Positions 3,876 through 29,563 of a stretch of 32,000 nucleotides of DNA are shown piece after piece. The first letter of the stretch is position 1, and each line of letters begins with the position of its first letter. The notes under the pieces are model-generated. The model was not told the DNA's origin. It did no database searches and saw only the letters and a program-made list of their open reading frames with translations. The stretch comes from Acaryochloris marina S15 (GTDB taxonomy: Bacteria; Cyanobacteriota; Cyanobacteriia; Thermosynechococcales; Thermosynechococcaceae), in contig NZ_CP064923.1 in assembly GCF_018336915.1 (NCBI RefSeq), positions 3,090,001 through 3,122,000 on the forward strand. The letters run 5' to 3'. The translations under genes and the position numbers were made by a program.

Positions 3876-3891
3876 ATAAAGCGTGAATTGG

Positions 3892-3966
3892 GGTGGCCGA
3901 CGGGACTTGAACCCGCTAACACTAGGATCACAACCTAGCTCCTCGTCCGCTTCGGATTCGGCCAAC
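3892..3966 (-). tRNA. tRNA-His(GUG)
   Basis: Anticodon stem CTAGG/CCTAG with loop TTGTGAT; T arm GCGGG-TTCAAGT-CCCGT; an extra 5' G opposite C73, as expected for His. Weak points are a 1:72 mismatch and a D stem of only 3 bp. Confidence 0.6.
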
Positions 3967-4062
3967 ACAGTGGATTCTGGTCGGATTTGTACGCATAGCG
4001 TCTCCGATAGGAGATACCGACATCTTTCTGCACAAGGCAGATGCTTTGCCAATTACATATAG
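3967..4062 (-). pseudogene. tRNA-like gene with T-loop module and degenerate 5' half
   Basis: Perfect T stem GTCGG/CCGAC enclosing TATCTCCTATCGGAGACGCTATGCG+TACAAAT. There is a possible anticodon hairpin TCTG-CCTTGTG-CAGA. I found no convincing acceptor pairing or D arm. Confidence 0.35.
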
Positions 4063-4135
4063 AAGGAGTGGTAGGATTTGAACCTACACAGACCGATTTA
4101 GAAGATCGGTGCCCCATCCTTTAGGCGACACTCCC
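4063..4135 (-). tRNA. tRNA-Arg(UCU)
   Basis: Acceptor GGGAGTG/CACTCCT (G1-U72); anticodon stem CCGAT/ATCGG with loop CTTCTAA; T arm GTAGG-TTCAAAT-CCTAC. Confidence 0.85.
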
Positions 4136-4140
4136 AGGTT

Positions 4141-4230
4141 TGGTAGGGGATCTGGGTTATGATCCCAGCCGTCTAGACTAATCTGGTCCCCTCGCTTATA
4201 AGGCGAAGCCGCTCACCAGAGCTATCCCCC
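4141..4230 (-). tRNA. atypical tRNA-like gene with UAU anticodon (Ile AUA reader), long extra arm, non-canonical T-loop
   Basis: Acceptor GGGGGAT/ATCCCCT followed by encoded ACCA; D stem GCTC/GAGC with a 4-nt loop; anticodon stem TTCGC/GCGAG with loop CTTATAA; extra arm of about 21 nt; T arm CTGGG-ATCATAA-CCCAG, which lacks TTC. Confidence 0.5.
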
Positions 4231-4235
4231 ACTGA

Positions 4236-4357
4236 TGGTCCCTGTAGGATTCGTACGCGAAGCAGCTCCGTTGACGAAGCCACCCCAAAGGGGCTTGGAG
4301 CTACCTATGGCCACCTTTTTGTAAGAAAGGCACTCTCCCAGGCTGAGTTACAGGACC
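4236..4357 (-). tRNA. tRNA-Val(UAC)-like with enlarged T-loop module
   Basis: 5' acceptor GGTCCTG; D stem ACTC/GAGT; anticodon stem CCTTT/AAAGG with loop CTTACAA. T stem (A)TAGG/CCTA(C) encloses TAGCTCC-[27-nt inner hairpin]-GGAGCTGCTTCGCG+TACGAAT. The 3' acceptor strand has one extra G. Confidence 0.55.
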
Positions 4358-4361
4358 ACAA

Positions 4362-4432
4362 AGCGAGTGGTGAGATTCGCACTCACGCGCTGGCGTTGGC
4401 ACTGCCAGATGCTACTGCTACATCACACTCGC
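4362..4432 (-). tRNA. tRNA-Gly(GCC)
   Basis: Perfect acceptor GCGAGTG/CACTCGC; D stem GATG/CATC; anticodon stem TGGC(A)/(C)GCCA with loop GTGCCAA; T arm GTGAG-TGCGAAT-CTCAC. Confidence 0.7.
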
Positions 4433-4436
4433 CCAA

Positions 4437-4517
4437 AGCGGATAACGAGATTTGTTCGCGAAGCGTCTCCTCACATCAAGAGTTTAGAAGCCTCTGATGC
4501 TGGCACACCATATCCGC
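4437..4517 (-). tRNA. tRNA-Arg(UCU)-like with short T-loop module
   Basis: Perfect acceptor GCGGATA/TATCCGC; anticodon stem AGAG/CTCT with loop CTTCTAA. T stem GTGAG/CTCGT (two G-U pairs) encloses GAGACGCTTCGCG+AACAAAT. The D arm is irregular. Confidence 0.5.
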
Positions 4518-4582
4518 AAAAGGTTTATATCCGTTAGGTTTTATGCACCTAAGTTATTTAGACCTCAATGATTTCGCACCTA

Positions 4583-5098
4583 TTAATTCGGCTGTTCAGC
4601 TATTTTTAAGTAGGTGTTATAAGTCAAGTCGCCAAAGCAGGCAAAGATAACTTTGGTCATAAATTGATTTTCCTGCAAGAAATTGAGGGTCGTTTCAAAG
4701 GCGATCTGACAGGCTTGGTCTATCGGATAGCCATAGACTCCGCAACTAATGGCAGGAAAGGCTATGGCTTGAATCCCATTGCCAACTGCTAACTCTAAGC
4801 TACGTTGATAGCAGGCTTGCAACAAAATCGCTTCATTGGCTCCCCCTCCTCGCCAAATAGGACCAACGGTGTGAATCACATACTTGGCTGGCAGTTGATA
4901 CCCTTTCGTGAGTTTGACATGGCCTGTTTTACAGCCTTTAAGCATTCGGCATTCTGCCAAAAGTTGTGGCCCGGCTGCGCGATGAATTGCTCCATCGACT
5001 CCACTCCCGCCAAGCAATGACTCATTAGCTGCATTGACAATCGCATCTACCTTAAGGGTTGTGATATCAGTTTGGACAATTTCGATTCGAGCATTCAT
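4583..5098 (-). CDS. macrodomain protein (YmdB / O-acetyl-ADP-ribose deacetylase-like)
   Basis: 171 aa with hallmark macrodomain motifs: [49 protein letters not shown]. It is embedded between tRNA genes on the same strand. Confidence 0.85.
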
Positions 5099-5163
5099 GG
5101 ATTAGCCCCTTAGGGAATTCCCTTGTGAGAAATATCATCATTCTGTACCTAAATAATGGAACA

Positions 5164-5260
5164 AGCTGGTGACAGGGGTTGTTCGCGAAGCGTCTCCGAA
5201 GGAGAAACCTGCAACCTATTGTTTACAAGACAATTGCTCTAGCCATTGAGCTGCACCAGC
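5164..5260 (-). tRNA. tRNA-Thr(UGU)-like with 24-nt T-loop module
   Basis: Perfect acceptor GCTGGTG/CACCAGC; D stem GCTC/GAGC; anticodon stem ATTGT/ACAAT with loop CTTGTAA. T stem GCAGG/CCTGT encloses TTTCTCCTTCGGAGACGCTTCGCG+AACAACC, a 31-nt loop. Confidence 0.65.
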
Positions 5261-5275
5261 TCAAGTTTTGGTATT

Positions 5276-5352
5276 TGGTAGCGGAGGTGAGAGTTGCACT
5301 CACGGATGTGCAGCTTATGAAACTGCCGAGCCCCTCTTGCTCCATCTCCGCT
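5276..5352 (-). tRNA. tRNA-Met/Ile2(CAU)
   Basis: Perfect acceptor AGCGGAG/CTCCGCT followed by encoded ACCA; anticodon stem GCAGT/GCTGC with loop TTCATAA; T arm GTGAG-TGCAACT-CTCAC. Confidence 0.7.
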
Positions 5353-5457
5353 ATGAGGGTTGGGATATTACATTGCTCTAGAGTGGTTGCCAATTTTGGA
5401 GTTGTTTTAGGAGGTGGAGGATGATTTGCGATCGCAAAACTCATACCTACCGTGAAC

Positions 5458-5880
5458 CTATACTCCTGGCATTTGAGCCAGATCTGGCTCCACCCAACAC
5501 TGTCTGGCTGCCTTCGACATCAACCGATCCTTCGAGTAGTAGATCAAGGGGAGATGGCGTTCACCCCACTCTTCTATCAAAGTCTCAGCTAGTTGATCGA
5601 TGGGCTGTGAGACATCATGCTGTTCAAGGAAATAAATAATCACTTTCAGATAAAATTGCGTGATGGTCTCGTGATAGCCCGAAGTCTCCGTGTTCACCAC
5701 ACCACACACAATGTTGTACCGTTGAATACACTCCCGAAGCAGATTTAACGCTGTTTGAGAGGAATAGTGCATCAGATGCCAGAGTCCTACCCGCAAATGA
5801 GCTTCATGAGTCCACGCTGATTTTGGTAACGTGCAATCACAAAATTCTTGGACGATTGTACTGGTGTTGGATTTGACCAT
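5458..5880 (-). CDS. hypothetical protein (140 aa from the ATG at 5880; the ORF track extends it to a TTG at 5907)
   Basis: ORF inside the tRNA operon. GGAAG lies 5 nt upstream of the ATG (MVKSNTS...). The sequence is His-rich (WTHEAHLRVGLWHLMHY, GYHETIT). I do not recognise a family. Confidence 0.55.
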   Translation of the reverse strand: MVKSNTSTIVQEFCDCTLPKSAWTHEAHLRVGLWHLMHYSSQTALNLLRECIQRYNIVCGVVNTETSGYHETITQFYLKVIIYFLEQHDVSQPIDQLAETLIEEWGERHLPLIYYSKDRLMSKAARQCWVEPDLAQMPGV

Positions 5881-5989
5881 TAGACTTCCATCTTGACTCG
5901 CAAGCAATCATGAGCTGGCTTTCACCCGGAAATTGAGGTTGGGAGGTGGCCAATGATCAACTCCCATAGGAGCGATAGTGACCACCTGC

Positions 5990-7291
5990 CTACTGAGCAA
6001 TGTCAGAGAAAGACAGGATGCGATCGCGAAACCAAGACTTCCCAGCATTAGTAACCGCTTTATTGACATCCTTCCAAGAAAGCTGTGCTGTTTCTAATTC
6101 AGCTTTGCTTTCTTTTTGGACATCCTGGGCCAGCCACTTCAGGAATCCACCCAACTGCTTCATATCTAATGGCCCTTGGCAACTCTCAGTTAACCCTTGC
6201 TCCAAGCGAGCGGGAGTCACCATCAACGCCACAAATTCATCAATACTCTTAACGAATTCAGGATCTAGTTGCACTGGCTGCTTAGTTTTGACCACCTGAT
6301 GTTTTTCGCCTTTGGCCTTAAACATCAGCTCAGGATAGGTCAGTCGATCCACCCGGGTTTGGCTTTGAGGATAGAGAACCAGTCCTTCCCCCAATCCTTC
6401 AATTCCGAAGGTCGCTTTAACCCAAGGGTCAATTTGCTCAACTTCAGACACAAACTGGTTGATAGAATTGGCGGCTGATTCCAATTGGTCTCGGTTGCCA
6501 AAATCCAAGGTCAATGGCTCACCCAAAAAAGGTAAGACAAAGATATCTGGATGGGATGGTAAAAGCTGGGAAATCGGAGCTGGATTAACCTCCAACTTAG
6601 CAACTTCATTTTCTACTCCGCCATACTGGATTGCAAACACCGTAAAGATTCTGCGATCAATTTGGGAAATAGAAGTCCGCTTTTGAATTCCCTGACCACA
6701 CCATTCTCCGAAGATCGTGATGTGCTCGTGATCTGCCAACGCAGTGAAGTAATCCATGTGTTGACTGACCCAGTGGGCAAATCCCATATTGTCATCGTCT
6801 GGTGTGATGATCTGGGAACGACTTTGAGCAGCCACTCGACCATCCGTGAAGATTTGCACCCCGGCATTGGTTCCATCCAGCTTGATTTTTGCTCGATAGG
6901 TCACCACCGGAGTGGCTTCCAACACTATTAAGCTGCGTCGAACATTATGCAGGAGTTCCACACTCGGCCATCGCTGCATTTGCACCGACTGGACAACGGA
7001 CTGTTGGCAATAGGTCTTGGATACATCTTGCCCCATTGGTAATTCAGTTTTACCCAGTGCCATTCCATAAGAGACGATGCCTCGCAATTTAGTTGCTTTG
7101 ATTTTGGTGCCGTCTTTGAGAACGGAATTTACTTGGGCAACCAAAACTAGATCACCGACCTCATAGGTTCGTTCCAAATTTGCAATTACCTGAGTAGGAG
7201 GAGATCCAGGGGATTGCATCGTATACACTTTGAGTGAGTCAGCATTCGGATGCTTCTCGACGTTTTTTACCTCCATTACAATCACAGTCAT
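5990..7291 (-). CDS. tRNA-binding OB domain fused to an Rnl2-type (PF09414-like) ATP-dependent RNA ligase
   Basis: The start is taken at ATG 7289-7291 with GGAG 7 nt upstream; the ORF-track extension to 7441 overlaps tRNA-Lys. The N-terminus VEKHPNADSLKVY...KLRGIVSYGMAL is a Trbp111/EMAP-type tRNA_bind domain. The nucleotidyltransferase motifs follow: KLDGTN (I), IFGEWCG.GIQ (III), GEGLVLY (IV), MFKAKGEKH (V). Confidence 0.8.
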   Translation of the reverse strand: MTVIVMEVKNVEKHPNADSLKVYTMQSPGSPPTQVIANLERTYEVGDLVLVAQVNSVLKDGTKIKATKLRGIVSYGMALGKTELPMGQDVSKTYCQQSVVQSVQMQRWPSVELLHNVRRSLIVLEATPVVTYRAKIKLDGTNAGVQIFTDGRVAAQSRSQIITPDDDNMGFAHWVSQHMDYFTALADHEHITIFGEWCGQGIQKRTSISQIDRRIFTVFAIQYGGVENEVAKLEVNPAPISQLLPSHPDIFVLPFLGEPLTLDFGNRDQLESAANSINQFVSEVEQIDPWVKATFGIEGLGEGLVLYPQSQTRVDRLTYPELMFKAKGEKHQVVKTKQPVQLDPEFVKSIDEFVALMVTPARLEQGLTESCQGPLDMKQLGGFLKWLAQDVQKESKAELETAQLSWKDVNKAVTNAGKSWFRDRILSFSDIAQ

Positions 7292-7371
7292 CACGTCACT
7301 CCTCAATTGGCTGACTAATATCAACGAAATCAATGCCAGATATTCTGGCTTTTTCACCCCAAATTGGATGA

Positions 7372-7444
7372 TGGGCTGTGTAGGCTTCGAACCTACGCGC
7401 TTCCGCTTAAGAGGCGGCTGCTCTGCCAGCTGAGCTAACAACCC
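7372..7444 (-). tRNA. tRNA-Lys(CUU)
   Basis: Acceptor GGGTTGT/ACAGCCC; D stem GCTC/GAGC; anticodon loop CTCTTAA; T arm GTAGG-TTCGAAG-CCTAC. Confidence 0.9.
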
Positions 7445-7543
7445 TGGTGGGCCGCCTAGGGGATATACGCGAAGCGGCTCCGAAGGAGCTACCTAGATCT
7501 ATCCGCTTAAAAGGCGGCTGCATATTCGCTCTGCCAACGGCCC
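7445..7543 (-). tRNA. tRNA-Lys(UUU)-like with 24-nt T-loop module
   Basis: Acceptor GGGCCGT/GCGGCCC followed by encoded ACCA; 3-bp D stem GCA/TGC; same anticodon stem as the neighbouring Lys(CUU), with loop CTTTTAA. Perfect T stem CTAGG/CCTAG encloses TAGCTCCTTCGGAGCCGCTTCGCG+TATATCC. It abuts the Lys(CUU) gene with no spacer. Confidence 0.65.
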
Positions 7544-7576
7544 ATTAGTCTTTTGAGCTATATCAGCTTCATAGTT

Positions 7577-7625
7577 CCCTAACAGATCAATGGAGAGGAA
7601 GGCCCCTCCATTGATCTGTTAGGGG
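7577..7625. repeat. long inter-tRNA hairpin (about 19-bp perfect stem)
   Basis: CCCTAACAGATCAATGGAG ... CTCCATTGATCTGTTAGGG around a GC-rich centre. Neither strand has a flanking U-tract. Confidence 0.8.
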
Positions 7626-7630
7626 CTCAG

Positions 7631-7704
7631 TCCGGGTGGCAGGATTTGAACCTGCGACATCCTGGTCCCAAACCAGGCGCGCTACCAAACTGCGCTACAC
7701 CCGG
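7631..7704 (-). tRNA. tRNA-Pro(UGG)
   Basis: Acceptor CCGGGTG/CACCCGG (C1-G72, typical of bacterial Pro); D stem GCGC/GCGC; anticodon stem CCTGG/CCAGG with loop TTTGGGA; T arm GCAGG-TTCAAAT-CCTGC. Confidence 0.9.
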
Positions 7705-7709
7705 ATATC

Positions 7710-7787
7710 TGGTACTCCCGACAGGAGTTGAACCTGCAAAAACTCTGTCTCTCAAACAGAGGCGTTTACCAATTTCGCCACGGGAGC
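7710..7787 (-). tRNA. tRNA-Leu(GAG), class-I architecture (no long variable arm)
   Basis: Acceptor GCTCCCG/CGGGAGT followed by encoded ACCA; Leu-type D arm TGGCGAAATTGGTAAACGCC; anticodon stem TCTGT/ACAGA with loop TTGAGAG; only 6 nt between the anticodon and T stems; T arm GCAGG-TTCAACT-CCTGT. Confidence 0.7.
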
Positions 7788-7791
7788 ACAA

Positions 7792-7865
<74 letters not shown>

Positions 7866-7917
7866 ATAAAAGGAATTTAGAGTTAGAAATTCAAAGATGA
7901 GTTCTTTAAATTTCTAG

Positions 7918-7991
7918 TACTCCTGGTGGGAATCGAACCCACAACCTCTAGTTTTTGAGACCAGTGCCTCTTCCAATTGGGCTACAGGAGT
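7918..7991 (-). tRNA. tRNA-Leu(CAA), class-I architecture
   Basis: Paralog of 7792-7865 with the same acceptor and T stem. Anticodon stem CTGGT/ACTAG with loop CTCAAAA; 5-nt variable region. Confidence 0.7.
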
Positions 7992-8057
7992 AAATTGAGA
8001 AATCAGGCAGGCCTGACAGGTTAACGGAAACAAGGGGTGAACTCACCCTATTCCCGA

Positions 8058-8131
8058 TACTCCTGGTGGGAGTCGAACCCACAACAAACTGTGTTTAAGA
8101 CAGTTGCGTCTGCCAATTGCGCCACAGGAGT
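8058..8131 (-). tRNA. tRNA-Leu(UAA), class-I architecture
   Basis: Same acceptor ACTCCTG/CAGGAGT; D arm TGGCGCAATTGGCAGACGCA (GCG/CGC stem, Leu-like); anticodon stem ACTGT/ACAGT with loop CTTAAAC; variable region TTGTT; T arm GTGGG-TTCGACT-CCCAC. Confidence 0.7.
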
Positions 8132-8187
8132 AGTAAAAGGAGGCGTGAATAGACCCAGGCGATAGGTTTTGTTTCAACGGCCTCCAA

Positions 8188-8259
8188 CTGTCCCACCAGG
8201 ATTCGAACCTAGAATTTCGCTGTCAAAGAGCGAAGTGTTGCCAGTTACACCACAGGACA
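8188..8259 (-). tRNA. tRNA-Gln(UUG)
   Basis: Acceptor TGTCCTG/TGGGACA (U1-A72) with G73; D stem GTGT/ACAC; anticodon stem TCGCT/AGCGA with loop CTTTGAC; T arm CTAGG-TTCGAAT-CCTGG. Confidence 0.85.
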
Positions 8260-8270
8260 ATAAAAGATAG

Positions 8271-8342
8271 ATGCCGAGGTAGGATTCGCACCTACACCCT
8301 CCTGATTCAGAGTCAGGCGACTTGCGATTCGTCCACTCGGCA
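8271..8342 (-). tRNA. tRNA-Gln(CUG)
   Basis: Perfect acceptor TGCCGAG/CTCGGCA (U1-A72); anticodon stem CCTGA/TCAGG with loop CTCTGAA; T arm GTAGG-TGCGAAT-CCTAC. Confidence 0.8.
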
Positions 8343-8348
8343 AAGAAT

Positions 8349-8424
8349 TGGCTGCCCCGGCAGGGATTGAACCTGCGACCGTTCGCTTAACAGGCGACCG
8401 CTACTACCACTGAGCTACAGGGCA
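8349..8424 (-). tRNA. tRNA-Asn(GUU)
   Basis: Acceptor TGCCCTG/CGGGGCA followed by encoded GCCA; anticodon stem GTCGC/GCGAA with loop CTGTTAA; T arm GCAGG-TTCAATC-CCTGC. Confidence 0.85.
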
Positions 8425-8431
8425 ACGACAG

Positions 8432-8553
8432 CTCCCCAGGTCGGTTTTGGTCGCGAAGCATCTCCGAATGAGAAACTGGCGACCTCCTGCACTAAGCCCT
8501 TCGGGTAGGCTGCGCCAACACACAGGCGCTACTACCTCTGAGCTACCGGGGGA
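8432..8553 (-). ncRNA. aberrant tRNA-like gene: 8-nt anticodon-position loop, long extra arm, T-loop module
   Basis: The 5' part TCCCCCGGTAGCTCAGAGGTAGTAGC is tRNA-like. Stem GCGCC/GGCGC closes the loop TGTGTGTT. An extra hairpin follows around CCCGAAGGG. The module TTTCTCATTCGGAGATGCTTCGCG+ACCAAAA is present, but the T-stem and acceptor registers are ambiguous. Confidence 0.4.
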
Positions 8554-8579
8554 CAAAACAACCGATGGGTTGTCTAAAG

Positions 8580-8653
8580 CGAGAACGGAAGGACTTGAAC
8601 CCTCAATCTTCAAGTTCGTAGCCTGAGATGTTATCCAGTTACACCACGTTCTC
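8580..8653 (-). tRNA. tRNA-Arg(ACG)
   Basis: Perfect acceptor GAGAACG/CGTTCTC; D stem GTGT/ACAT; anticodon stem TCAGG/CTTGA with loop CTACGAA; T arm GAGGG-TTCAAGT-CCTTC. Confidence 0.85.
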
Positions 8654-8657
8654 AAAA

Positions 8658-8743
8658 CGGAGAGGACAGGATTCGAACCTGCAACGGTCTTAAACCGTAC
8701 TCCCTTAGCAGGGGAGCGCTTTTCCCCACTCAGCCACCTCTCC
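8658..8743 (-). tRNA. tRNA-Ser(GCU)
   Basis: Perfect acceptor GGAGAGG/CCTCTCC; anticodon stem CTCCC/GGGAG with loop CTGCTAA; long variable arm TACGGTTTAAGACCGTT; T arm GCAGG-TTCGAAT-CCTGT. Confidence 0.9.
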
Positions 8744-8796
8744 AAAAGCTATTGCTGAGTGATAAGTACTACAAGCTGCCAACTTGTAATACAAAC

Positions 8797-8881
8797 TGGT
8801 AGTTCGGGCAGGAATTGAACCTGCAACACAATAAGCGGCTGCTTTACAGGCAGTTGCCCACACCAGTAGGCGAGCCGACCT
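8797..8881 (-). tRNA. tRNA-Tyr(GUA)
   Basis: Acceptor AGGTCGG/CCGAACT (one mismatch) followed by encoded ACCA; anticodon stem CTGC/GCAG with loop CTGTAAA; 13-nt variable arm (class II, as in bacterial Tyr); T arm GCAGG-TTCAATT-CCTGC. Confidence 0.75.
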
Positions 8882-8886
8882 ATGTT

Positions 8887-8963
8887 TGGGAGTGGCGACA
8901 GGATTTGAACCCGCAATCACCTGGGTGAAAACCAAGCTGCTTAAACCATTTGCATACGCCACT
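8887..8963 (-). tRNA. tRNA-Glu(UUC)
   Basis: Perfect acceptor AGTGGCG/CGCCACT followed by encoded CCCA; anticodon stem CTTGG/CCAGG with loop TTTTCAC; T arm GCGGG-TTCAAAT-CCTGT. Confidence 0.8.
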
Positions 8964-8970
8964 TTGGTAT

Positions 8971-8996
8971 TTGCCTGAACCGATGGATTCAGGCAA
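8971..8996. repeat. inter-tRNA hairpin (9-bp perfect stem)
   Basis: TTGCCTGAA-CCGATGGA-TTCAGGCAA, located between tRNA-Glu and tRNA-Trp. Confidence 0.75.
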
Positions 8997-9067
8997 CACG
9001 GAGACTAGGATTTGAACCTAGAACATCAGCTTTGGAGACTGAGGTGTTGCCATTACACCATCCCCGC
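8997..9067 (-). tRNA. tRNA-Trp(CCA)
   Basis: Acceptor GCGGGGA/TCTCCGT (two G-U pairs) with G73; D stem GTGT/ACAC; anticodon stem TCAGT/GCTGA with loop CTCCAAA; T arm CTAGG-TTCAAAT-CCTAG. Confidence 0.8.
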
Positions 9068-9072
9068 AAAGG

Positions 9073-9144
9073 TAGCAGTGACAGGACTCGAACCTGCATC
9101 TTCTCGGTTATGAGCCGAGTACCTTGCCGTTAGGTTACACTGCG
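9073..9144 (-). tRNA. tRNA-Met(CAU), possibly initiator-like (unpaired 1:72)
   Basis: The 5' end CGCAGTG pairs with CACTGCT leaving a C1/U72 mismatch. Anticodon stem CTCGG/CCGAG with loop CTCATAA; T arm GCAGG-TTCGAGT-CCTGT. Confidence 0.7.
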
Positions 9145-9149
9145 TCGTT

Positions 9150-9224
9150 TGGAGTCCAGGGTGGGAGTTAAACCCACGATTTCCGGCTTTGCAGACCGAC
9201 GCTTTATCCCTTAGCTACCTGGAC
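9150..9224 (-). tRNA. tRNA-Cys(GCA)
   Basis: Perfect acceptor GTCCAGG/CCTGGAC with U73 (a Cys identity element) and encoded CCA; anticodon loop CTGCAAA; T arm GTGGG-TTTAACT-CCCAC. Confidence 0.8.
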
Positions 9225-9227
9225 TTG

Positions 9228-9255
9228 TGGCCTATAGCGATTTGCTATTAGGCCA
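9228..9255. repeat. inter-tRNA hairpin (stem of about 11 bp)
   Basis: TGGCCTATAGC-GATTT-GCTATTAGGCCA, with one bulged T. Confidence 0.65.
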
Positions 9256-9262
9256 AATTCAG

Positions 9263-9336
9263 AAGTCTCGACGGGAGTTGCACCCGCTTCTCCTTGGCTG
9301 AGAACCAAAGCGACTTATCTAATCGTCCACGAGACT
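9263..9336 (-). tRNA. tRNA-Glu(CUC)
   Basis: Perfect acceptor AGTCTCG/CGAGACT; anticodon stem TTTGG/CCAAG with loop TTCTCAG; T arm GCGGG-TGCAACT-CCCGT. Confidence 0.75.
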
Positions 9337-9339
9337 ATA

Positions 9340-9414
9340 CGGGGGAGACGGGATTTGAACCCGCGACCTTTCGCTCGACAGGCGACTGCTCTAGACCCAC
9401 TGAGCTACACCCCC
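9340..9414 (-). tRNA. tRNA-Asp(GUC)
   Basis: Acceptor GGGGGTG/CTCCCCC (one mismatch) with G73; D stem GCTC/GAGC; anticodon stem GTCGC/GCGAA with loop CTGTCGA; T arm GCGGG-TTCAAAT-CCCGT. Confidence 0.85.
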
Positions 9415-9490
9415 AAATGTGGAAAATATTCAGTTTTCAAGGTTCAGAAGTTGATTGGCTGTAGTAGCTCGTTTCAACTGCATTACATTT

Positions 9491-9519
9491 ATACTACAAA
9501 TATACTACAGAAATGTCAA
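9491..9519 (-). promoter_or_regulatory. candidate sigma70-type promoter of the tRNA operon
   Basis: The minus strand reads TTGACA (9519-9514), a 17-nt spacer, then TAGTAT (9496-9491), about 75 nt upstream of the first tRNA (Asp). The -10 element is one of three direct TGTAGTAT repeats. Confidence 0.5.
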
Positions 9520-9615
9520 GGGCATACTACAAGTTTTTTTGACTTTCTTTTGAGCAATTAAGTTTGAGAGAGAGCAAACCCATAGAATGAGCTAAAATAC
9601 TCCCTCTCAAGGATC

Positions 9616-10005
9616 TTAATCGACAACTACCGTTGTTAGGGCCTGATCAGCAGCTTGCCAGAGACGACGAAGAATTAACTCCGTCTCATAGTCATAGGCG
9701 GCTAAGAACATCCCCTCATGAGCTTGGGCAGTCTGTGCCATCCAGGTCCCAGAAAGGTTAACTTCGACATATTCCGCATCCACACGAGCAATCTCTAGGG
9801 TTTTGTCATATTGGCGAAGTGCCGTTTCTAAAGCACCCAAACCAGGGGTCAACACTGGGAGTAGGAAAGAAGCCTGTCCCATTTCAATATGGAGGGTTAG
9901 GCCGGTACGGACGGTGAGAACAACATGGTGAGAAACAACGGTTTCTAAGGAATCCCCTACATATTCCATATGCAGTCCCAAGTCGGTATAGATCAGTTTC
10001 AGCAT
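9616..10005 (-). CDS. hypothetical protein (129 aa from MLKLIYTD)
   Basis: The longer ORF-track version (to 10113) overlaps the 3' end of the HNH gene. The internal ATG at 10005 gives a compact arrangement just downstream of the HNH stop. No family recognised. Confidence 0.5.
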   Translation of the reverse strand: MLKLIYTDLGLHMEYVGDSLETVVSHHVVLTVRTGLTLHIEMGQASFLLPVLTPGLGALETALRQYDKTLEIARVDAEYVEVNLSGTWMAQTAQAHEGMFLAAYDYETELILRRLWQAADQALTTVVVD

Positions 10006-10063
10006 GGTGGACTGTCTCCAAAAAATTCTGAGTTGTAGTCGGAGAACTGGGACGGCCCAGCCC

Positions 10064-10582
10064 TTAATGCATAGCGGTTTCTTGGCTTTTCCAAAACTGG
10101 TCTGCAAAGGCAACAGCCGGATGGATGGGGGCCTTGGGTTTGGTCTGCAAGGTCATCCCTGCCTGGGTTGGCGTTCGGTCGCTTTTTGAGGAGTTACAAG
10201 GCTCACAGGCAGCGACGACGTTGTCCCAGGTATGCAATCCACCCTTAGACCGGGGAATGACGTGATCCAAGGTGAGTCGGCGATGGCTACCGCAATATTG
10301 GCAGCGATGCTGATCTCGTTTAAGGACCTCGCGGCGGTTGACGGGAGGGATTTTCCACATCCGCCCTGGGTTCCCCATCAGCAGGCGGATATGCTCCGAT
10401 ACCTGCAAGACCTGATTGGGCGATCGCACTTCCCATACCTGGGTATTGCCAAAATCGAGAGACTCAGCTTGACCCGTTATCAGAAGAACAATGGCGCGCT
10501 TGATATTGATCCGGGCCAGGGGCAAGTAGGCTTTAGAAAAGACGACCACGGAGTTTTGGAGAATAGGCTGGATAACGGTCAT
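10064..10582 (-). CDS. HNH endonuclease
   Basis: 172 aa with the HNH core CQYCG....LTLDHVIPRSKGG..TWDNVVAACEPCNSSK. GAGGAG lies upstream of the ATG. Confidence 0.85.
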   Translation of the reverse strand: MTVIQPILQNSVVVFSKAYLPLARINIKRAIVLLITGQAESLDFGNTQVWEVRSPNQVLQVSEHIRLLMGNPGRMWKIPPVNRREVLKRDQHRCQYCGSHRRLTLDHVIPRSKGGLHTWDNVVAACEPCNSSKSDRTPTQAGMTLQTKPKAPIHPAVAFADQFWKSQETAMH

Positions 10583-21223: not shown

Positions 21224-23716
21224 TTAATTCTCAGTGAATTCAAAACCCGTATTAAAGTTTTCAACTCTTCCTTCTAGAATGGCAATCAAATCGTTACTCC
21301 CCGCTAAACGAAGGCTAGTTCGACTACCAAAAGTCATTAAAGTATAGTCTGCAGCACTGCCAGCGAGCTCAATCGTATCTTGATTGAGTTCAAACCGTTG
21401 AATAATTGCCAGACCCCGACCTTGGTAAAAGACAGAACGCTCATCTCCTAAGATAAAGACATCTTCGCCTCTACCTCCCTTTAAGAGGTCAAAGTCGTGT
21501 CGGCCAAACTGATCGCCAACACCATTAATGATGTCATTGCCGTTGCCACCTCTGACCATATCGTTGCCATTACCCGCAACTAATACATCGTTATCAGCAT
21601 ATCCAGTCAACACATCATTACCATCACCGCCAATAACGGTATCGTTACCCGCACCACCGATTAAGTAGTCATCCCCAAGATTACCGATCAGGATATCGGC
21701 CCCAAAATTCCCCCGGATGAAGTCATTGCCATCTAGTCCATCAATCAGATCATTCTGTCGAGTTCCCCGTAATGAGTTTTGGCCATCATCTCCCAAGATT
21801 TTGTTCTCATAGGGGACCTGGAATACATTATCTTGAACCAGATAATCTTGGGTCGTGTTCAGACGAATGATATTCGATAAATTTGTCTGGGTAATGTCTG
21901 CAGCGAGCACCTTTAATTCATCCAGATCATTCAAGAAGAAAAAGCGATCGCCAGCCGCTGCACGAGCGAATTGATCTTTGATGAAAAAGCTAAAGGTGGG
22001 TCCAAGCAAACCACCATGATTCGCCGACAACTCCGAAATACCCCCTAGCCATAAGTCGATCTGGCCCACATGTTTGTAGGCTGTCTCAAACAGCTCAATC
22101 ACAGCAGGGGCAAACGGCAACTCTTCAAAAGAGGTAATCTCAACACCAAATAGCTGTTTTTGAGCGTCAACATAACTGGGAAGACCCACTTCTCGACCCC
22201 GCTGAATATTGACAGATGCTAGGTCAAAGCCTCCTGTACCAGCGCCAAAAAGGAAGTTGCGGACGCCATCCACAATAAAGTTATCCAGTTCTTGAGCTTC
22301 TTGCAAAACTAGCCCTCGCAAAAGGGAATCAACCCCATTGGCCGACACTTCCCCAGGTTTAAAGAAGGCATCTTTAAGGGCAATCGACTCTAAACCGTTG
22401 TCATCAAAACGGTGGATTTGATTATTGAGTAGGGTATGGCCCAAACGATAAGCCGCATTCGCAAATTCATTACTAACGGCTGGATTGATATAGGGTTGAT
22501 ACCCCTCATAGTCATCGAGCAGGGTATCTCCAATCAGAAGCGGGAGAAACTCTTTATAGGTAATGATTTGGATCTTGGCCCCAATAACCTTACGAGCCGC
22601 TTGGTAAAGGTACTCATCCTTCACCTTATCTGCATGGGTTACTCCGTTCTGGTTGAGATACTCCCCTTTAAAGGATTGATATTGAGCGACGAGTCCCGAT
22701 TCGCCGGCCTCTAGTCGTTCTGAAATATCAGCGGCTAATCGATTATGTTCACGCACAAACAGAACATGATTGGCCGTGAGCCCAAGTTGTTCATTGGCAC
22801 GAACATCTCCTGCCAAGTAAAGGTCTGCATCCGCGATATTTTGTCCACCGTTAGCGTTGCCAAATGGGTGATCAGCACGATTGTATGGCAAGAGTTGTTC
22901 GCCATTCTCGGCAACAGTGGTTTTCAGCTCACCGTTTGCATAGGACCGAAGAAAGTTAGCTCGCTCTGCATCTGAACCGTACACTCCAGAACCATCAATA
23001 AATGAGGTAATCTCATTATTTTGCTCACGAGGATTATGTCGGTTAGTCCCTGTATCATGTGCAGCTGGCACACGAGTAAAAGGCAGATAAGGAAATTTCG
23101 GATTAAAGAGTGAATCAGACTTAGAAACAGGAATAAAAAAGGCTTCTTTTCCACCCTCGTTCAAATCTAGGTCGTGATCAATAAATTGTCCCCACTGCCA
23201 CAACCAATCACTCGCTCCCAAAAAATTAGGAATCGACTCAGTTTGGCTAGCAACTGTATTGCTTATCTCTCTCGGATTAGGTAACCCAGCTGGATCTGGA
23301 ATGCTATAGGAGCCACCATGTGGAGAGTCAATCATGATCGCCCCCCCTCGAGGAGTACTCACACCATCATCATAAGCAGGGGTTAATAGTCTTAAAAGCT
23401 GAGTATCACTCGAACCCGCATGGTGATGGTATGGATTATTGCCTGTTCCGTCAATTGAGCGATATTGAAACAACGAGTTCGTATTGCCTGGAACGGTACC
23501 TTCCTCTTGATCTATATCCAATATTCGAGAGCCATAGAGTGGTGTAGCGGTCAACTCTAAATAAGTAGGCTCCATTTCGTTATCGTTCATTTGACCTGAA
23601 GAAGACGTATCGTCTAGAACGGTACCTTCCTCTTGATCTATATCCAATATTCGAGAGCCATAGAGTGGAGTGGCGGTCGACTCTATATCATTGGGTACCA
23701 TTTCATTATCGTTCAT
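21224..23716 (-). CDS. animal-haem-peroxidase-family protein with C-terminal RTX (hemolysin-type Ca-binding) repeats
   Basis: 830 aa. Peroxidase blocks: WGQFIDHDL, FIDGSGVYGS, LLPYN, GD.RANEQ..LT..H.LF.REHNRLA, AAYRLGHTLL. The C-terminus carries GxxGxD nonapeptide repeats (GNDFIRGNFGADILIGNLGDDYLIGGAGNDTVIGGDGNDVLTG...). Confidence 0.88.
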   Translation of the reverse strand: MNDNEMVPNDIESTATPLYGSRILDIDQEEGTVLDDTSSSGQMNDNEMEPTYLELTATPLYGSRILDIDQEEGTVPGNTNSLFQYRSIDGTGNNPYHHHAGSSDTQLLRLLTPAYDDGVSTPRGGAIMIDSPHGGSYSIPDPAGLPNPREISNTVASQTESIPNFLGASDWLWQWGQFIDHDLDLNEGGKEAFFIPVSKSDSLFNPKFPYLPFTRVPAAHDTGTNRHNPREQNNEITSFIDGSGVYGSDAERANFLRSYANGELKTTVAENGEQLLPYNRADHPFGNANGGQNIADADLYLAGDVRANEQLGLTANHVLFVREHNRLAADISERLEAGESGLVAQYQSFKGEYLNQNGVTHADKVKDEYLYQAARKVIGAKIQIITYKEFLPLLIGDTLLDDYEGYQPYINPAVSNEFANAAYRLGHTLLNNQIHRFDDNGLESIALKDAFFKPGEVSANGVDSLLRGLVLQEAQELDNFIVDGVRNFLFGAGTGGFDLASVNIQRGREVGLPSYVDAQKQLFGVEITSFEELPFAPAVIELFETAYKHVGQIDLWLGGISELSANHGGLLGPTFSFFIKDQFARAAAGDRFFFLNDLDELKVLAADITQTNLSNIIRLNTTQDYLVQDNVFQVPYENKILGDDGQNSLRGTRQNDLIDGLDGNDFIRGNFGADILIGNLGDDYLIGGAGNDTVIGGDGNDVLTGYADNDVLVAGNGNDMVRGGNGNDIINGVGDQFGRHDFDLLKGGRGEDVFILGDERSVFYQGRGLAIIQRFELNQDTIELAGSAADYTLMTFGSRTSLRLAGSNDLIAILEGRVENFNTGFEFTEN
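23491..23716 (-). repeat. 126-bp-period tandem duplication at the 5' end of the peroxidase gene
   Basis: 23491-23590 and 23617-23716 are near-identical. They encode MNDNEM.P....TATPLYGSRILDIDQEEGTV twice, and each copy begins with ATG. Confidence 0.9.
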
Positions 23717-27459: not shown

Positions 27460-27879
27460 TTAGGATTCCTGGGTTTCGGGATATGAAGGTGCTTCAGCTC
27501 CAGAGCCATCTTCTAGTTCATTGATGTGTCGATAGAACTTTTGAAGATAGCTGAGATCACAGGCAAACAGTCCTTCAACAACATTGGGGCTGATGGAGTC
27601 TAGGGCCCCTAAACGCGTGATCACCCGAGACAGAATAATGACCGTCGCATAGGCCGGATTGGCTTTTACCCGCGGATCACGCATCGGTACAATCTCATCC
27701 ATCGCCCTGGACAAGCGCATGATGCCCTTGCGATGCAAATTCCCAGCCGTATCGAGATATCCTTTGGGCAACTCAAACTCAAACTCTATTTGCACCGAAC
27801 CCAAAACTGTCTGAGATTCTGTTACCGGTCCAGGGACCTCAGGGGGAGGTGATAGCCCTAAATTATTACTCAGTTGCAT
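27460..27879 (-). CDS. small CIS-associated protein, paralog A (tail-assembly-chaperone-like?)
   Basis: 139 aa. Its start codon lies 1 nt from the preceding stop. See paralog B for the shared pattern. Confidence 0.55.
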   Translation of the reverse strand: MQLSNNLGLSPPPEVPGPVTESQTVLGSVQIEFEFELPKGYLDTAGNLHRKGIMRLSRAMDEIVPMRDPRVKANPAYATVIILSRVITRLGALDSISPNVVEGLFACDLSYLQKFYRHINELEDGSGAEAPSYPETQES

Positions 27880-27880
27880 A

Positions 27881-28375
27881 TTACGCCGTGACCTCTACTC
27901 GCTTAACGGATTCAACCGTAATCTCCACCTCTTCGATGTTATGGTCTCCACTTTTGACATCTAGATCAGAAATTTTGTAGCTGACGGGCCAGGCTCCTTG
28001 AAATTCCAATCGACACTGTTCTTTCGCAGCTTGGTTATAAATCACCAATGCACCTTCCCGGCGCTGCTCAGCCCAGTCTCCTTCTTGCACCTTTTGTAAC
28101 CAATTCCACAAAGTCATTGAAGACATCAAACCCCGCTTTAAGGTGAGGTTAGAGTAGGTGGCATTGCCAGGAATCTTGGTGCGGATGTTGCGACCTTTGG
28201 TTTTTCCCTGTTTCCCCCAGAGTTGTGGGGTCACCTCTACCACTTCAATCACGTCCTGGGAAGCTTGAAACCCGCTACATTCCATAAATATTCCATCAAC
28301 TGAATCTTGGCTTCCTTCCAGTTTCAGTTCTAGATAGAATCTTGACCGTGTGAGGATTTCTGGTAGATCGGGCAT
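27881..28375 (-). CDS. phage-tail-tube-like protein (CIS tube paralog 3)
   Basis: 164 aa. The N-terminal RSRFYLELKLEG...CSGF block is typical of the gp19/Afp1-5 tube family. It lies next to two other tube genes. Confidence 0.7.
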   Translation of the reverse strand: MPDLPEILTRSRFYLELKLEGSQDSVDGIFMECSGFQASQDVIEVVEVTPQLWGKQGKTKGRNIRTKIPGNATYSNLTLKRGLMSSMTLWNWLQKVQEGDWAEQRREGALVIYNQAAKEQCRLEFQGAWPVSYKISDLDVKSGDHNIEEVEITVESVKRVEVTA

Positions 28376-28410
28376 TAGAGCGGTTCACCCTAGTGAAATG
28401 TGCACAAAAT

Positions 28411-28893
28411 TTAGACTTTCCGGATGACCTGAGTGAAGTACAGATCAATATTGTCTTCTGCTAGTTGTCCACCACTATCCACTGACAGACTTCCCACCTG
28501 CTTTTTCGCCCCTGGGAACAGGTCGGTAAAATTAAAGCGCATGGCTTCTTTGCCATCTGGGTTATAAATGACTAAAGACCCCGTTTTACGGCCTTCCATC
28601 GCTTTAGAGCCTCCCCCAGAAAAGGTATCTGGGTGACAATCGTCGTACCAATCCGAAAGCTTCTTTTGTTCTCCCTCATTGCCTGCAACATAGGTGAGGG
28701 CAATAGTGCTGTTGTATTTAACTCCACCAATCGTCGCTTGAGTCTGGGTTTTAGCATCTTTGGTGACTCCAATAGCTGAATCGCCCCCCGCAACTTCCAG
28801 TTCAATTTCAGGACCACTGATTGATTTAAGGGTCAAAGAAGTTACCCCATCTATCTCAAAATAAAACTTGGAATTGGCTAGATACTGAACCAT
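28411..28893 (-). CDS. phage-tail-tube-like protein (CIS tube paralog 2)
   Basis: 160 aa: NSKFYFEIDGV..LTLKSISG...GSLVIYN..G.E..RFNF. Confidence 0.75.
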   Translation of the reverse strand: MVQYLANSKFYFEIDGVTSLTLKSISGPEIELEVAGGDSAIGVTKDAKTQTQATIGGVKYNSTIALTYVAGNEGEQKKLSDWYDDCHPDTFSGGGSKAMEGRKTGSLVIYNPDGKEAMRFNFTDLFPGAKKQVGSLSVDSGGQLAEDNIDLYFTQVIRKV

Positions 28894-28960
28894 TTTGGGT
28901 CTCCGAATTTATCCCTGATCATTACACTGTTGTGCTGGATCCAATGAGAAGCAATCAGCA

Positions 28961-29461
28961 CTATTTTGTTCGATTAAATTTCTCACACGTGATGGTGTAG
29001 GTCTCTTCGATATAGCTGTCGGCGGTAACATCTAAGTCTGCACATTTATACTTAGACGGCCAAGCTTCACTAAACTGCCATTTGGCCACTTCCTCACCAT
29101 CCGTGTTGTAGGCGGTAATACTGCCTTCTTTCTGGTTATCTGCCCACTTGCCTTTGCCACCACTGGAAGAGGGCAAACATTGCTCAAACCATTTATACAT
29201 ATTCAAACTGGTGCTATCGCCATCTCCACTGGCAATACAAATGCAGTCAAAGGAGAATAAGCCTTCAAAACCTGCTGAGTTGACTTGCCAAATGGTTTTC
29301 CCCCCTTTTGTGGTTCCCACGGCCTGTTGTCCCCCTTGGACTTTGGGAGAGTAGTCGGGAATATTTACACTCTTGAATACAGATTTTTCACCATCAGCAA
29401 CACCAGAAATCTCTAGATAGAAACTACTGGGGGCAATGGGTTTATTAAGTTCACTTGCCAC
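28961..29461 (-). CDS. phage-tail-tube-like protein (CIS tube paralog 1)
   Basis: 166 aa: PSSFYLEISGV......FKSV......GSITAYN.DGEEVAKWQFSEAWP.KY. Confidence 0.75.
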   Translation of the reverse strand: MASELNKPIAPSSFYLEISGVADGEKSVFKSVNIPDYSPKVQGGQQAVGTTKGGKTIWQVNSAGFEGLFSFDCICIASGDGDSTSLNMYKWFEQCLPSSSGGKGKWADNQKEGSITAYNTDGEEVAKWQFSEAWPSKYKCADLDVTADSYIEETYTITCEKFNRTK

Positions 29462-29563
29462 AGATATGCTCCTTGTTCAGTGATCGATGAAATAGACGAT
29501 CAGCAATCCCGATAGATATGCTGAGAGGCAGAAAGAGGCAATCCCCTTCCTGCCTAAAAGAGT

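Follow-up and report, generated by a model that had tools for sequence, protein, structure and literature searches.

A tRNA-binding OB domain fused to an Rnl2-type RNA ligase in a tRNA array of Acaryochloris marina S15

A window of 32,000 nucleotides from the cyanobacterium Acaryochloris marina S15 (contig NZ_CP064923.1, positions 3,090,001 to 3,122,000) carries, within an array of tRNA genes, a gene encoding an RNA ligase of the T4 RNA ligase 2 (Rnl2) type that possesses an additional N-terminal OB domain of the tRNA_bind family. As far as the literature could be traced, this protein is an uncharacterised Rnl2 variant, and its three-domain architecture, in which an OB domain precedes a nucleotidyltransferase domain and an Rnl2-type C-terminal domain, is new. 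Judged from sequence and genomic setting, the enzyme is most likely a stress-induced ligase that seals nicks in tRNA. The more specific proposal, that it reseals tRNA breaks with 3'-OH and 5'-phosphate ends while the OB domain aids affinity for tRNA, is assigned a probability of roughly 0.6. The ligase gene, the tRNA array and the flanking genes all lie on the minus strand, and the gene itself is delimited as follows:

5990..7291, minus strand: OB-Rnl2 RNA ligase gene (coding sequence 7291..5993, stop codon 5992..5990; product of 433 amino acids)
7299..7302, minus strand: Shine-Dalgarno GGAG, read from the sequence

The mechanical open reading frame (ORF) on the minus strand extends from 7441 to 5990, and its first 50 codons overlap tRNA-Lys(CUU) at 7372-7444. 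The GGAG at 7302-7299 stands at 7-nt spacing from the ATG at 7291, and the equivalent methionine is the start in all 23 of the 23 aligned orthologues. The tRNA-Lys overlap, the Shine-Dalgarno sequence and the shared methionine together support the 433-residue product as the correct one; the first-pass annotation of this DNA had already discarded the N-terminus running through tRNA-Lys(CUU) and chosen the same ATG with its GGAG, and both choices hold. The nearest database proteins are Acaryochloris entries named "RNA ligase family protein", with 88-96% identity.

The ligase core comprises three features:

6347..6979, minus strand: nucleotidyltransferase (adenylyltransferase) domain (residues ~105-315, motifs I to V; delimited by PF09414 and the T4 Rnl2 alignment)
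6881..6883, minus strand: codon of Lys137 in motif I (KLDGTN), the predicted AMP-accepting lysine and equivalent of T4 Rnl2 K35
5993..6346, minus strand: all-helical C-terminal domain of the Rnl2 C-domain type (residues ~316-433; delimited by profile alignment, PHROG 548 and BFVD)

Conservation was assessed in an alignment of 24 orthologues at 55-88% identity (A1) and in a core profile built from window residues 101-433 and 47 stand-alone homologues (A2). The Pfam family RNA_ligase (PF09414) matches residues 134-312 with an E-value of 6.1e-13 (49.7 bits against a cut-off of 27). Motifs I (KIKLDGTN, residues 135-142), III (FGEWCG, 194-199), IV (EGLVLY, 302-307) and V (FKAKGEKH, 324-331) occupy in A1 the places at which they had been annotated from the sequence, and motifs Ia and IIIa are also present. 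K137 is invariant in both A1 and A2; L138, G140, T141, N142, R158, the run G195-E196-W197-C198-G199, K325, K327, G328 and H331 are likewise invariant in A1, and E302 is nearly so. When the A2 profile was compared with PDB sequences, it retrieved T4 RNA ligase 2 (E 3.5e-16), with profile positions 3-298 aligned to T4 residues 3-301 of 335, a span that takes in the complete nucleotidyltransferase domain and runs ~60 residues into the Rnl2-specific C-domain (T4 residues 244-301). The catalytic positions equated by this alignment (window/T4 Rnl2) are K137/K35, R158/R55, E196/E99, F219/F119, E302/E204, K325/K225 and K327/K227, each of them invariant or nearly so in both A1 and A2. Within the C-domain, R362 and D390 correspond to T4 R266 and D292, which we take to be important residues of T4 Rnl2. 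The "RNA ligase" family PHROG 548 covers residues 104-425 (E 8e-48; profile positions 2-335 of 341). In an AlphaFold2 (AF2) model with a pLDDT of 86, residues 3-81 form a beta-barrel and residues 350-432 are helical; its best BFVD match is a roseophage Rnl2 (E 2e-31, target-normalised TM score 0.70, 328 columns), and a PDB structure search with the same model returned full-length T4 Rnl2 at E 5e-12 and NgrRnl at E 1e-12. Taken with the all-alpha domain that follows the nucleotidyltransferase domain, these motif and profile matches identify residues ~105-433 as a complete predicted Rnl2-type ligase, helical C-domain included. The earlier designation of the C-terminal part as an Rnl2-type ligase is thereby upheld, since profile searches assigned it to ligase families and the motif I lysine is conserved throughout the orthologues.

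Membership in the family is nevertheless distant. The Rnl2 equivalog model TIGR02307 matches residues 131-224 only (28.2 bits, E 1.2e-6) and falls short of its cut-off of 197 bits. PF18043 remains below threshold in the window protein, although it reaches E 0.024 in one of the 24 orthologues and 1.3e-5 in orthologue P0125. The Rnl2 signature KxHG, with histidine two residues past the motif I lysine (PMC1807946), is also missing, as the window protein has Asp139 in KLDGTN. The form KLHGTN occurs in Pleurocapsales-type fused orthologues and in the stand-alone consensus, which indicates that the His/Asp position varies within the clade; many orthologues retain KxHG. The window protein is accordingly recognised as a distant Rnl2 member by profile and predicted fold rather than by the equivalog model. 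In common with T4 Rnl2 and its phage and bacterial relatives (PHROG 548; TIGR02307), it has a nucleotidyltransferase domain followed by an all-helical C-domain and retains the catalytic residues. It differs from T4 Rnl2 in Asp139 and in an alanine at the position of T4 D120, and from the phage Rnl2 homologues in its extra ~100-residue N-terminal tRNA_bind OB domain, its chromosomal location within a tRNA operon and its predicted control by TrcR.

The N-terminal extension is defined as follows:

6992..7291, minus strand: N-terminal OB domain of the tRNA_bind type (residues 1-100; nearest to PheRS-beta B2 and YtpR)

Pfam tRNA_bind (PF01588) matches residues 4-86 above its gathering score (E 4.6e-10, 39.9 bits against a cut-off of 27), and the beta-barrel of the AF2 model agrees with an OB fold. 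Among related families, the best match is PheRS-beta B2 (positions 46-132 of the pheT model TIGR00472, E 6.5e-16), followed by YtpR (E 9e-11) and TapR (E 5e-9), whereas the MetRS C-terminal domain, representing the Trbp111/CsaA-like type, reaches only 0.009. PheRS-beta chains in the PDB match the domain at E ~2e-9, Foldseek superimposes it on 3bu2, a putative tRNA-binding protein of S. saprophyticus, at ~1.5 A over 77 columns, and its identity to 3bu2 and to the YtpR chain of the integrative model 9a77 is 34-36%. The first-pass annotation was therefore correct in recognising an OB-fold tRNA_bind domain, but the Trbp111/CsaA-like subgroup that it named must give way to PheRS-beta B2, YtpR and TapR; with MetRS-C, Trbp111, CsaA and EMAP II, the shared OB fold represents a more distant relationship. 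Both Pfam families (PF01588 and PF09414) are found in all 24 members of A1, which establishes the proposed fusion of OB domain and ligase as genuine.

A scan of 1.84 billion representative proteins yielded 4031 matches, and the family comprises 1278 clusters at E-values up to 1e-3. Full-length fused forms account for about 30 of the best 150 clusters, while most of the others among these 150 are stand-alone proteins of ~330 residues that match residues ~105-425 at 40-50% identity; over residues 101-433, stand-alone homologues of this length range from 40 to 54% identity. Database names already in use include "RNA ligase family protein" and "tRNA-binding EMAP/Myf-like protein". In a neighbour-joining tree of the core, all fused forms fall into one clade that is nested among stand-alone bacterial and phage Rnl2 ligases and that spans cyanobacteria, Myxococcota and other "delta" lineages, with a few members inside it lacking the N-terminal domain. 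The OB domain is missing from five cyanobacterial orthologues, three of which still reside within tRNA arrays. The simplest history suggested by the tree is that the OB domain was joined once to a bacterial or phage-type Rnl2 and was occasionally lost again later. A split gene was considered for the cyanobacterial loci without the N-terminal domain and was ruled out, as tblastn shows no separate tRNA_bind ORF there. A further tblastn search matched 221 phage records, many annotated as "RNA ligase 2", all of which are confined to residues ~107-432, so that none of the 221 covers the N-terminal domain and no phage-borne fused form was found; plasmid matches were limited to two partial and distant ones, and PADLOC assigned the ligase to no known anti-phage defence system. 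Two orthologues, P0125 (794 residues) and P0132 (1152 residues), are interrupted by one and two inteins (Hint plus LAGLIDADG), respectively, and the intein of P0125 lies inside motif I, between KLDG and (T/S)N, a classic catalytic-motif intein site.

The genomic setting of the ligase gene is a long array of tRNA genes, as the first-pass annotation had reported:

3891..9415, minus strand: L-type tRNA array (22 tRNA genes called by ARAGORN, one strand, interrupted by three protein genes)

An L-array is defined as at least 20 tRNA genes at a density of 2 or more per kb (PMC4758250), and the 22 genes in 5.5 kb observed here conform to it. Rfam supports 19 of the 22 ARAGORN calls and adds one full and one partial tRNA-like match; a 90-nt "tRNA-Ile(tat)", a tRNA-Met (5276-5352) and a tRNA-Glu(ctc) do not exceed the Rfam threshold. 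With a length of just 75-78 nt each, four consecutive tRNA-Leu genes would have no room for the long variable arm that bacterial tRNA-Leu usually has. Atypical tRNA or tRNA-like stretches lie at 7710-8132, 4141-4230, 4362-4432 and 5198-5252 on the minus strand, and most of the array tRNA genes do not encode CCA. The three interrupting protein genes encode the ligase, a conserved hypothetical protein of 140 residues and a YmdB/MacroD-type Macro protein.

This arrangement recurs in related genomes. A scan of one genome per species provided 80 related loci, to which the window is added in all neighbour counts (34 array and 47 non-array loci). Of the 80, 33 have the ligase inside a tRNA array whose tRNAs all share the ligase strand, and array loci for which at least ~13 kb of sequence is covered contain 17 to 41 tRNA genes. 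The position of the ligase within arrays is roughly conserved (…Gly-Val-Arg / ligase / Arg-Ala-Ala-His…), and the flanking tRNAs can come as close as 29-48 nt on the upstream side and 45-87 nt on the downstream side. Gaps of this size are too short for separate promoters, which makes co-transcription of ligase and array hard to avoid; in the window, tRNA-Lys is separated from the ligase by 80 nt with no convincing terminator between them. One Microcoleus array (L012) has, as the last tRNA before the ligase, an ARAGORN tRNA whose CUA anticodon ("Pyl(cta)") could make it an amber suppressor. The neighbours of non-array and Myxococcota genes are heterogeneous and include an M23 peptidase, an opposite-strand HAD phosphatase, a kinase-TPR protein and spurious high-GC ORFs.

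The best promoter-like site of the region lies just upstream of the first tRNA:

9491..9531, minus strand: array promoter, with TTGACA (9519-9514), a 17-nt spacer, TAGTAT (9496-9491) and three exact TGTAGTAT boxes

The boxes occupy 9531-9524, 9509-9502 and 9498-9491; a tandem pair covers the -10 box, and TGTAGTAT occurs nowhere else in the 32-kb window. In Anabaena, TrcR represses both the trn array and rtcB through the TGTAGTAT motif, and the operator of the trn operon is a TGTAGTAT that overlaps a TAGTAT -10 box (PMC10272220), while tandem 9-nt repeats over the -10 box and transcription start confer stress induction (PMC8421152). The repeat geometry of the window, with tandem operators on the -10 box plus an upstream copy, agrees with the latter description. 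Such arrays have been published as translational-stress operons (PMC8421152, PMC10272220): that of Anabaena 7120 is normally silent and is induced by translational stress (PMC8421152) or by loss of TrcR (PMC10272220), and translational stress also brings induction of VapC RNases and cleavage of array-encoded tRNAs (PMC8421152).

The same operator precedes solitary ligase genes. Among 24 non-array cyanobacterial loci, an exact TGTAGTAT lies within 250 nt upstream of the start in 9, amounting to 11 hits where the remainder of those loci predicts 0.03 (Poisson P ~2e-24); with one mismatch allowed, a box is present in 14 of the 24 (21 hits against 1.7 expected). Several other non-array loci carry related GTAATAC or TGTATTAC boxes of the trcR promoter type. 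Since the operator is found upstream of solo genes as well, the ligase is predicted to belong to the TrcR translational-stress regulon whether it lies in an array or alone, a membership stated in no paper that was found. Additional TGTAGTAT box pairs occur 6-10 kb downstream of the ligase in three loci (L010, L013 and L028).

These features can be combined into a model of function. Because TrcR operators cover the -10 box, the ligase is predicted to be silent under normal conditions and to be induced together with the spare tRNAs: translational stress would lift TrcR repression, and array and ligase would be co-expressed from the array promoter. By analogy with T4 Rnl2, Lys137 would then be adenylylated, the AMP would be transferred to the 5'-phosphate at a break, and attack by the 3'-OH would seal it. 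The presumed substrates are tRNAs broken so as to leave 3'-OH and 5'-phosphate ends, for which the OB domain would raise affinity, and such breaks may come from metal-dependent PIN/VapC tRNases induced in the same stress response. No Pnkp, Hen1 or RtcB occurs among the window ORFs of at least 100 residues that lie fully inside it, as had been claimed from the sequence alone, and no conserved end-healing partner emerged when all ORFs of at least 70 residues from the 80 loci and the window were clustered. The absence of Pnkp and Hen1 fits the model, since 3'-OH/5'-phosphate ends require no healing.

Several observations weigh against this proposal. The OB domain matches only positions 2-77 of the 96-position tRNA_bind profile, unlike synthetase-borne and free-standing tRNA_bind domains, from which it also differs in being fused to a ligase; the unmatched positions 78-96 presumably represent the C-terminal dimerisation segment of Trbp111 and CsaA. 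About half of the loci, including all those of Myxococcota, have no tRNA genes nearby, and the TrcR box is absent from the Myxococcota loci. Anabaena 7120, in which the TrcR regulon was measured, gave no ligase locus in the genome scan, its published regulon table contains no such ligase, and the literature search found no biochemical or expression data for any member of the fused clade. According to one review-type statement, the cuts of most microbial anticodon nucleases end in 2',3'-cyclic phosphate and 5'-OH (PMC10246899), and an Rnl2-type ligase would be unable to seal such ends unaided. Finally, the OB domain of NgrRnl contacts the gamma-phosphate of ATP and promotes lysine adenylylation, and the substrates of that enzyme are nicked duplexes rather than tRNA (PMC7261155).

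The last point concerns the Rnl5 ligases (DraRnl of Deinococcus radiodurans and NgrRnl of Naegleria gruberi), which are defined by an N-terminal OB domain, noted as PheRS-beta B2-like, and a nucleotidyltransferase domain (PMC1807946). Given this precedent, the combination of an OB domain with a ligase is not new in itself and does not imply tRNA recruitment. It also suggests an alternative in which the OB domain of the window protein acts as an intramolecular catalytic or nick-sensing helper, and the enzyme is a general sealer of nicked duplexes (rRNA, mRNA:sRNA or RNA:DNA hybrids) that travels with a mobile array. The order of domains is the same in both proteins, the N-domain of Rnl5 is required for adenylylation (PMC1807946, PMC7261155), and the top structural matches of the window protein in the PDB are NgrRnl entries (full-length proteins of 335-340 residues; ~384 columns, E 1e-12). 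Weak N-terminal matches to PF21189 ("PHA02142 OB-fold") and, over residues 3-60, to a second phage RNA-ligase family, phrog_968, together with the many loci without nearby tRNAs, point in the same direction. Other evidence makes this alternative improbable. Rnl5 lacks any domain after the nucleotidyltransferase (PMC1807946), whereas the window protein continues past motif V for ~118 helical residues of the Rnl2 type, so that its core already contains the C-domain that serves T4 Rnl2 as nick sensor; T4 Rnl2 forms ligase-AMP without any extra domain, and its nucleotidyltransferase domain alone is capable of self-adenylylation (PMC1807946). The N-domain matches PheT-B2 and YtpR models (E 1e-16 to 1e-10) far better than Rnl5-type ones, the Rnl5 OB domain being far more diverged from tRNA_bind; the Rnl5 model TIGR02306 scores 20.8 bits, short of its cut-off of 151, over the nucleotidyltransferase part only; and sequence profiles run against PDB sequences did not retrieve NgrRnl at E-values up to 1. 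With its C-domain, its failure in TIGR02306 and its closer match to tRNA_bind, the window protein is, by these sequence measures, not an Rnl5. As orthologues without the N-domain persist in the fused clade, the OB domain appears not to be catalytically indispensable, and this survival, together with the self-adenylylation of T4 Rnl2, renders an affinity module more likely than a catalytic one. Direct recruitment of the ligase to tRNA, which the first-pass annotation had taken as implied by the fusion, is thus not established: the Rnl5 OB domain aids adenylylation, and orthologues lacking the OB domain also reside in arrays. On the homology of the domain, recruitment is plausible but not implied.

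Two further explanations draw on the surroundings of the gene. One holds that the ligase operates in a module linked to ADP-ribose, together with Macro, NADAR and PARG enzymes that would remove ADP-ribose from RNA ends or tRNA before sealing or would dispose of KptA-type by-products. At least one of four such hydrolase families is present in 18 of the 34 array loci (NADAR in 8, Macro of a first type in 5, Macro of a second type in 7 and microbial PARG in 6), compared with 2 of the 47 non-array loci. The window array has its own YmdB-type Macro gene, and NADAR adjoins the ligase in two Spirulina-type non-array loci. A further family, TIGR02452, is one that we take to be PARG-like. One TIGR02452 protein (alr1372) belongs to the Anabaena TrcR regulon (PMC10272220), and phage RNA ligases are linked with KptA, 2H, Macro and NADAR domains (PMC9503650). 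However, the hydrolases track the arrays and not the ligase, most non-array ligase loci being devoid of them; no single family exceeds about a quarter of the array loci; and a search of the conserved neighbour clusters, which was not exhaustive, found no KptA/Tpt1, 2H or ADP-ribosyltransferase. As an account of the ligase itself, this explanation is distinctly less probable than the Rnl5-like one, although the hydrolases suggest that these islands handle ADP-ribosylated RNA or ADP-ribose by-products. The other explanation assigns the ligase to maintenance or maturation of the array, through joining of split or permuted tRNA pieces or odd precursors, or regards it as selfish cargo that aids spread together with the HNH gene. 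The 90-nt "Ile(tat)", the four short tRNA-Leu genes and the three calls not above the Rfam threshold would suit such a role, as would the HNH gene conserved upstream (PMC8421152) and the phage Rnl2 enzymes as nearest relatives of the ligase core. This is very unlikely, in that some solo ligase genes have a TrcR box of their own and no array, no splicing endonuclease is present, and Anabaena has an array without this ligase, from which 23 of 26 tRNAs are made and aminoacylated (PMC8421152).

The proposed tRNA nick-sealing ligase may also be compared with established repair systems. RtcB of the TrcR regulon is another RNA ligase whose gene lies by L-arrays in some cyanobacteria and carries a TGTAGTAT-type operator, and it has been proposed to repair cleaved tRNAs in the cyanobacterial stress regulon (PMC8421152, PMC10272220). 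It is unrelated in fold and chemistry, since it joins 3'-phosphate or 2',3'-cyclic phosphate ends to 5'-OH, whereas the Rnl2 type needs 3'-OH and 5'-phosphate. Because of these different end requirements, the two ligases would handle different kinds of breaks and may be complementary or alternative solutions. In the T4 system, Rnl1 and Pnkp likewise combine spare tRNAs with resealing against tRNA-cutting nucleases, and the tRNA cluster stands beside a homing endonuclease, SegB in T4 and HNH in the window (PMC8421152, PMC9503650, PMC7824862). Unlike T4, the window has no kinase-phosphatase healing enzyme, its ligase is an Rnl2 rather than an Rnl1, and the system resides on a cellular chromosome under a predicted host stress repressor.

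A broader and more tentative possibility is that the OB-Rnl2 ligase provides the repair function of a "tRNA replacement and repair island" that is mobile and controlled by TrcR. When translation is stressed or a toxin attacks, spare tRNAs would there be combined with healing-free resealing, tRNA selection by the OB domain and stripping of ADP-ribose from damaged RNA by the Macro, NADAR or PARG enzymes of the array. If so, the architectural types among ATP-dependent RNA ligases would rise to seven with this enzyme, and it would be the first Rnl2 of bacteria for which physiological substrate and regulator are defined. Rnl2-family ligases are in wide use as reagents, and to our knowledge their cellular role is largely undefined, the literature search having turned up nothing contrary. 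The clade offers a testable cellular setting for Rnl2, with TrcR as predicted regulator, translational stress as predicted inducer and tRNA as predicted substrate class. The joining of an OB domain, a nucleotidyltransferase domain and an Rnl2 C-domain unites hallmarks of Rnl5 and Rnl2, and the natural variants without the N-domain allow the contribution of the OB domain to be tested. The published picture of L-arrays is also extended, in that many arrays include a ligase and often encode ADP-ribose hydrolases as well. The ADP-ribose enzymes and the DEDDh exonuclease, EF-Tu, RibD_C/DHFR-like and PIN cargo suggest that arrays are damage-response modules and more than spare tRNA genes, although the link of this cargo to the ligase is indirect. 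The cargo is found in Oscillatoriales arrays (L010, L013, L015-L017, L020, L024, L025, L027, L029 and L051), with locus counts of 7 for an extra EF-Tu, 7 for a DEDDh/RNase T-type exonuclease, 14 for a RibD_C/DHFR-like protein, 6 for PIN toxins and 8 for a retropepsin-like aspartyl protease.

The remaining genes in and directly around the window array are the following:

4583..5098, minus strand: Macro-domain protein of the YmdB/MacroD type (O-acetyl-ADP-ribose deacetylase; Pfam Macro E 1.2e-46, NF001664 221 bits against 200)
5458..5880, minus strand: conserved all-helical protein of 140 residues, directly downstream of the ligase (mechanical ORF reaches 5907)
9616..10113, minus strand: alr0857-family small protein (NF045647 E 3.6e-41), between the HNH gene and the array promoter
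10064..10582, minus strand: HNH endonuclease gene (HNH E 9e-15), upstream of the array promoter

The Macro gene and the HNH gene, like the TrcR-operator promoter and the published translational-stress role of the arrays, did not figure in the first-pass annotation. The Macro gene sits two genes downstream of the ligase, inside the array; further ADP-ribose hydrolase genes are exemplified by 4530-4994 in locus L005, 7462-8067 in L047 and 8127-8969 in L027. An HNH gene upstream of L-arrays has been described, with HNH, rtcB and dpsA as conserved neighbours (PMC8421152). Figure 6 of that paper (Santamaria-Gomez et al.) includes the arrays of A. marina and Acaryochloris RCC1774, and its running text does not discuss the ligase. 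The mechanical ORFs of the HNH and alr0857-family genes overlap by 50 nt, and the pair precedes arrays in 6 loci; in NCBIfam the HNH domain is best matched by those of IscB and Cas9d, neither of which comes near its cut-off.

The 140-residue protein belongs to a family with 232 cluster matches from cyanobacteria, Gemmataceae and soil metagenomes, and its invariant residues include W23, H25, H28 and G68-Y69-H70-E71. No match was found in Pfam, NCBIfam, PHROG or PADLOC, and the best PDB fold match of its all-helical AF2 model (pLDDT 96) is not significant (E 0.5). It was considered as a partner of the ligase and rejected, as it adjoins the ligase only in Acaryochloris-type loci and is elsewhere unlinked to ligases or tRNAs. 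Farther away in the window, minus-strand genes at 27460-31264 encode contractile phage-tail-like proteins (two T4 gp19-type tail tube proteins and a tail sheath protein), which may derive from an extracellular contractile injection system or a prophage remnant. In an 830-residue protein encoded at 21224-23716 on the minus strand, an animal haem peroxidase domain (E 1e-138) is accompanied by RTX calcium-binding repeats.

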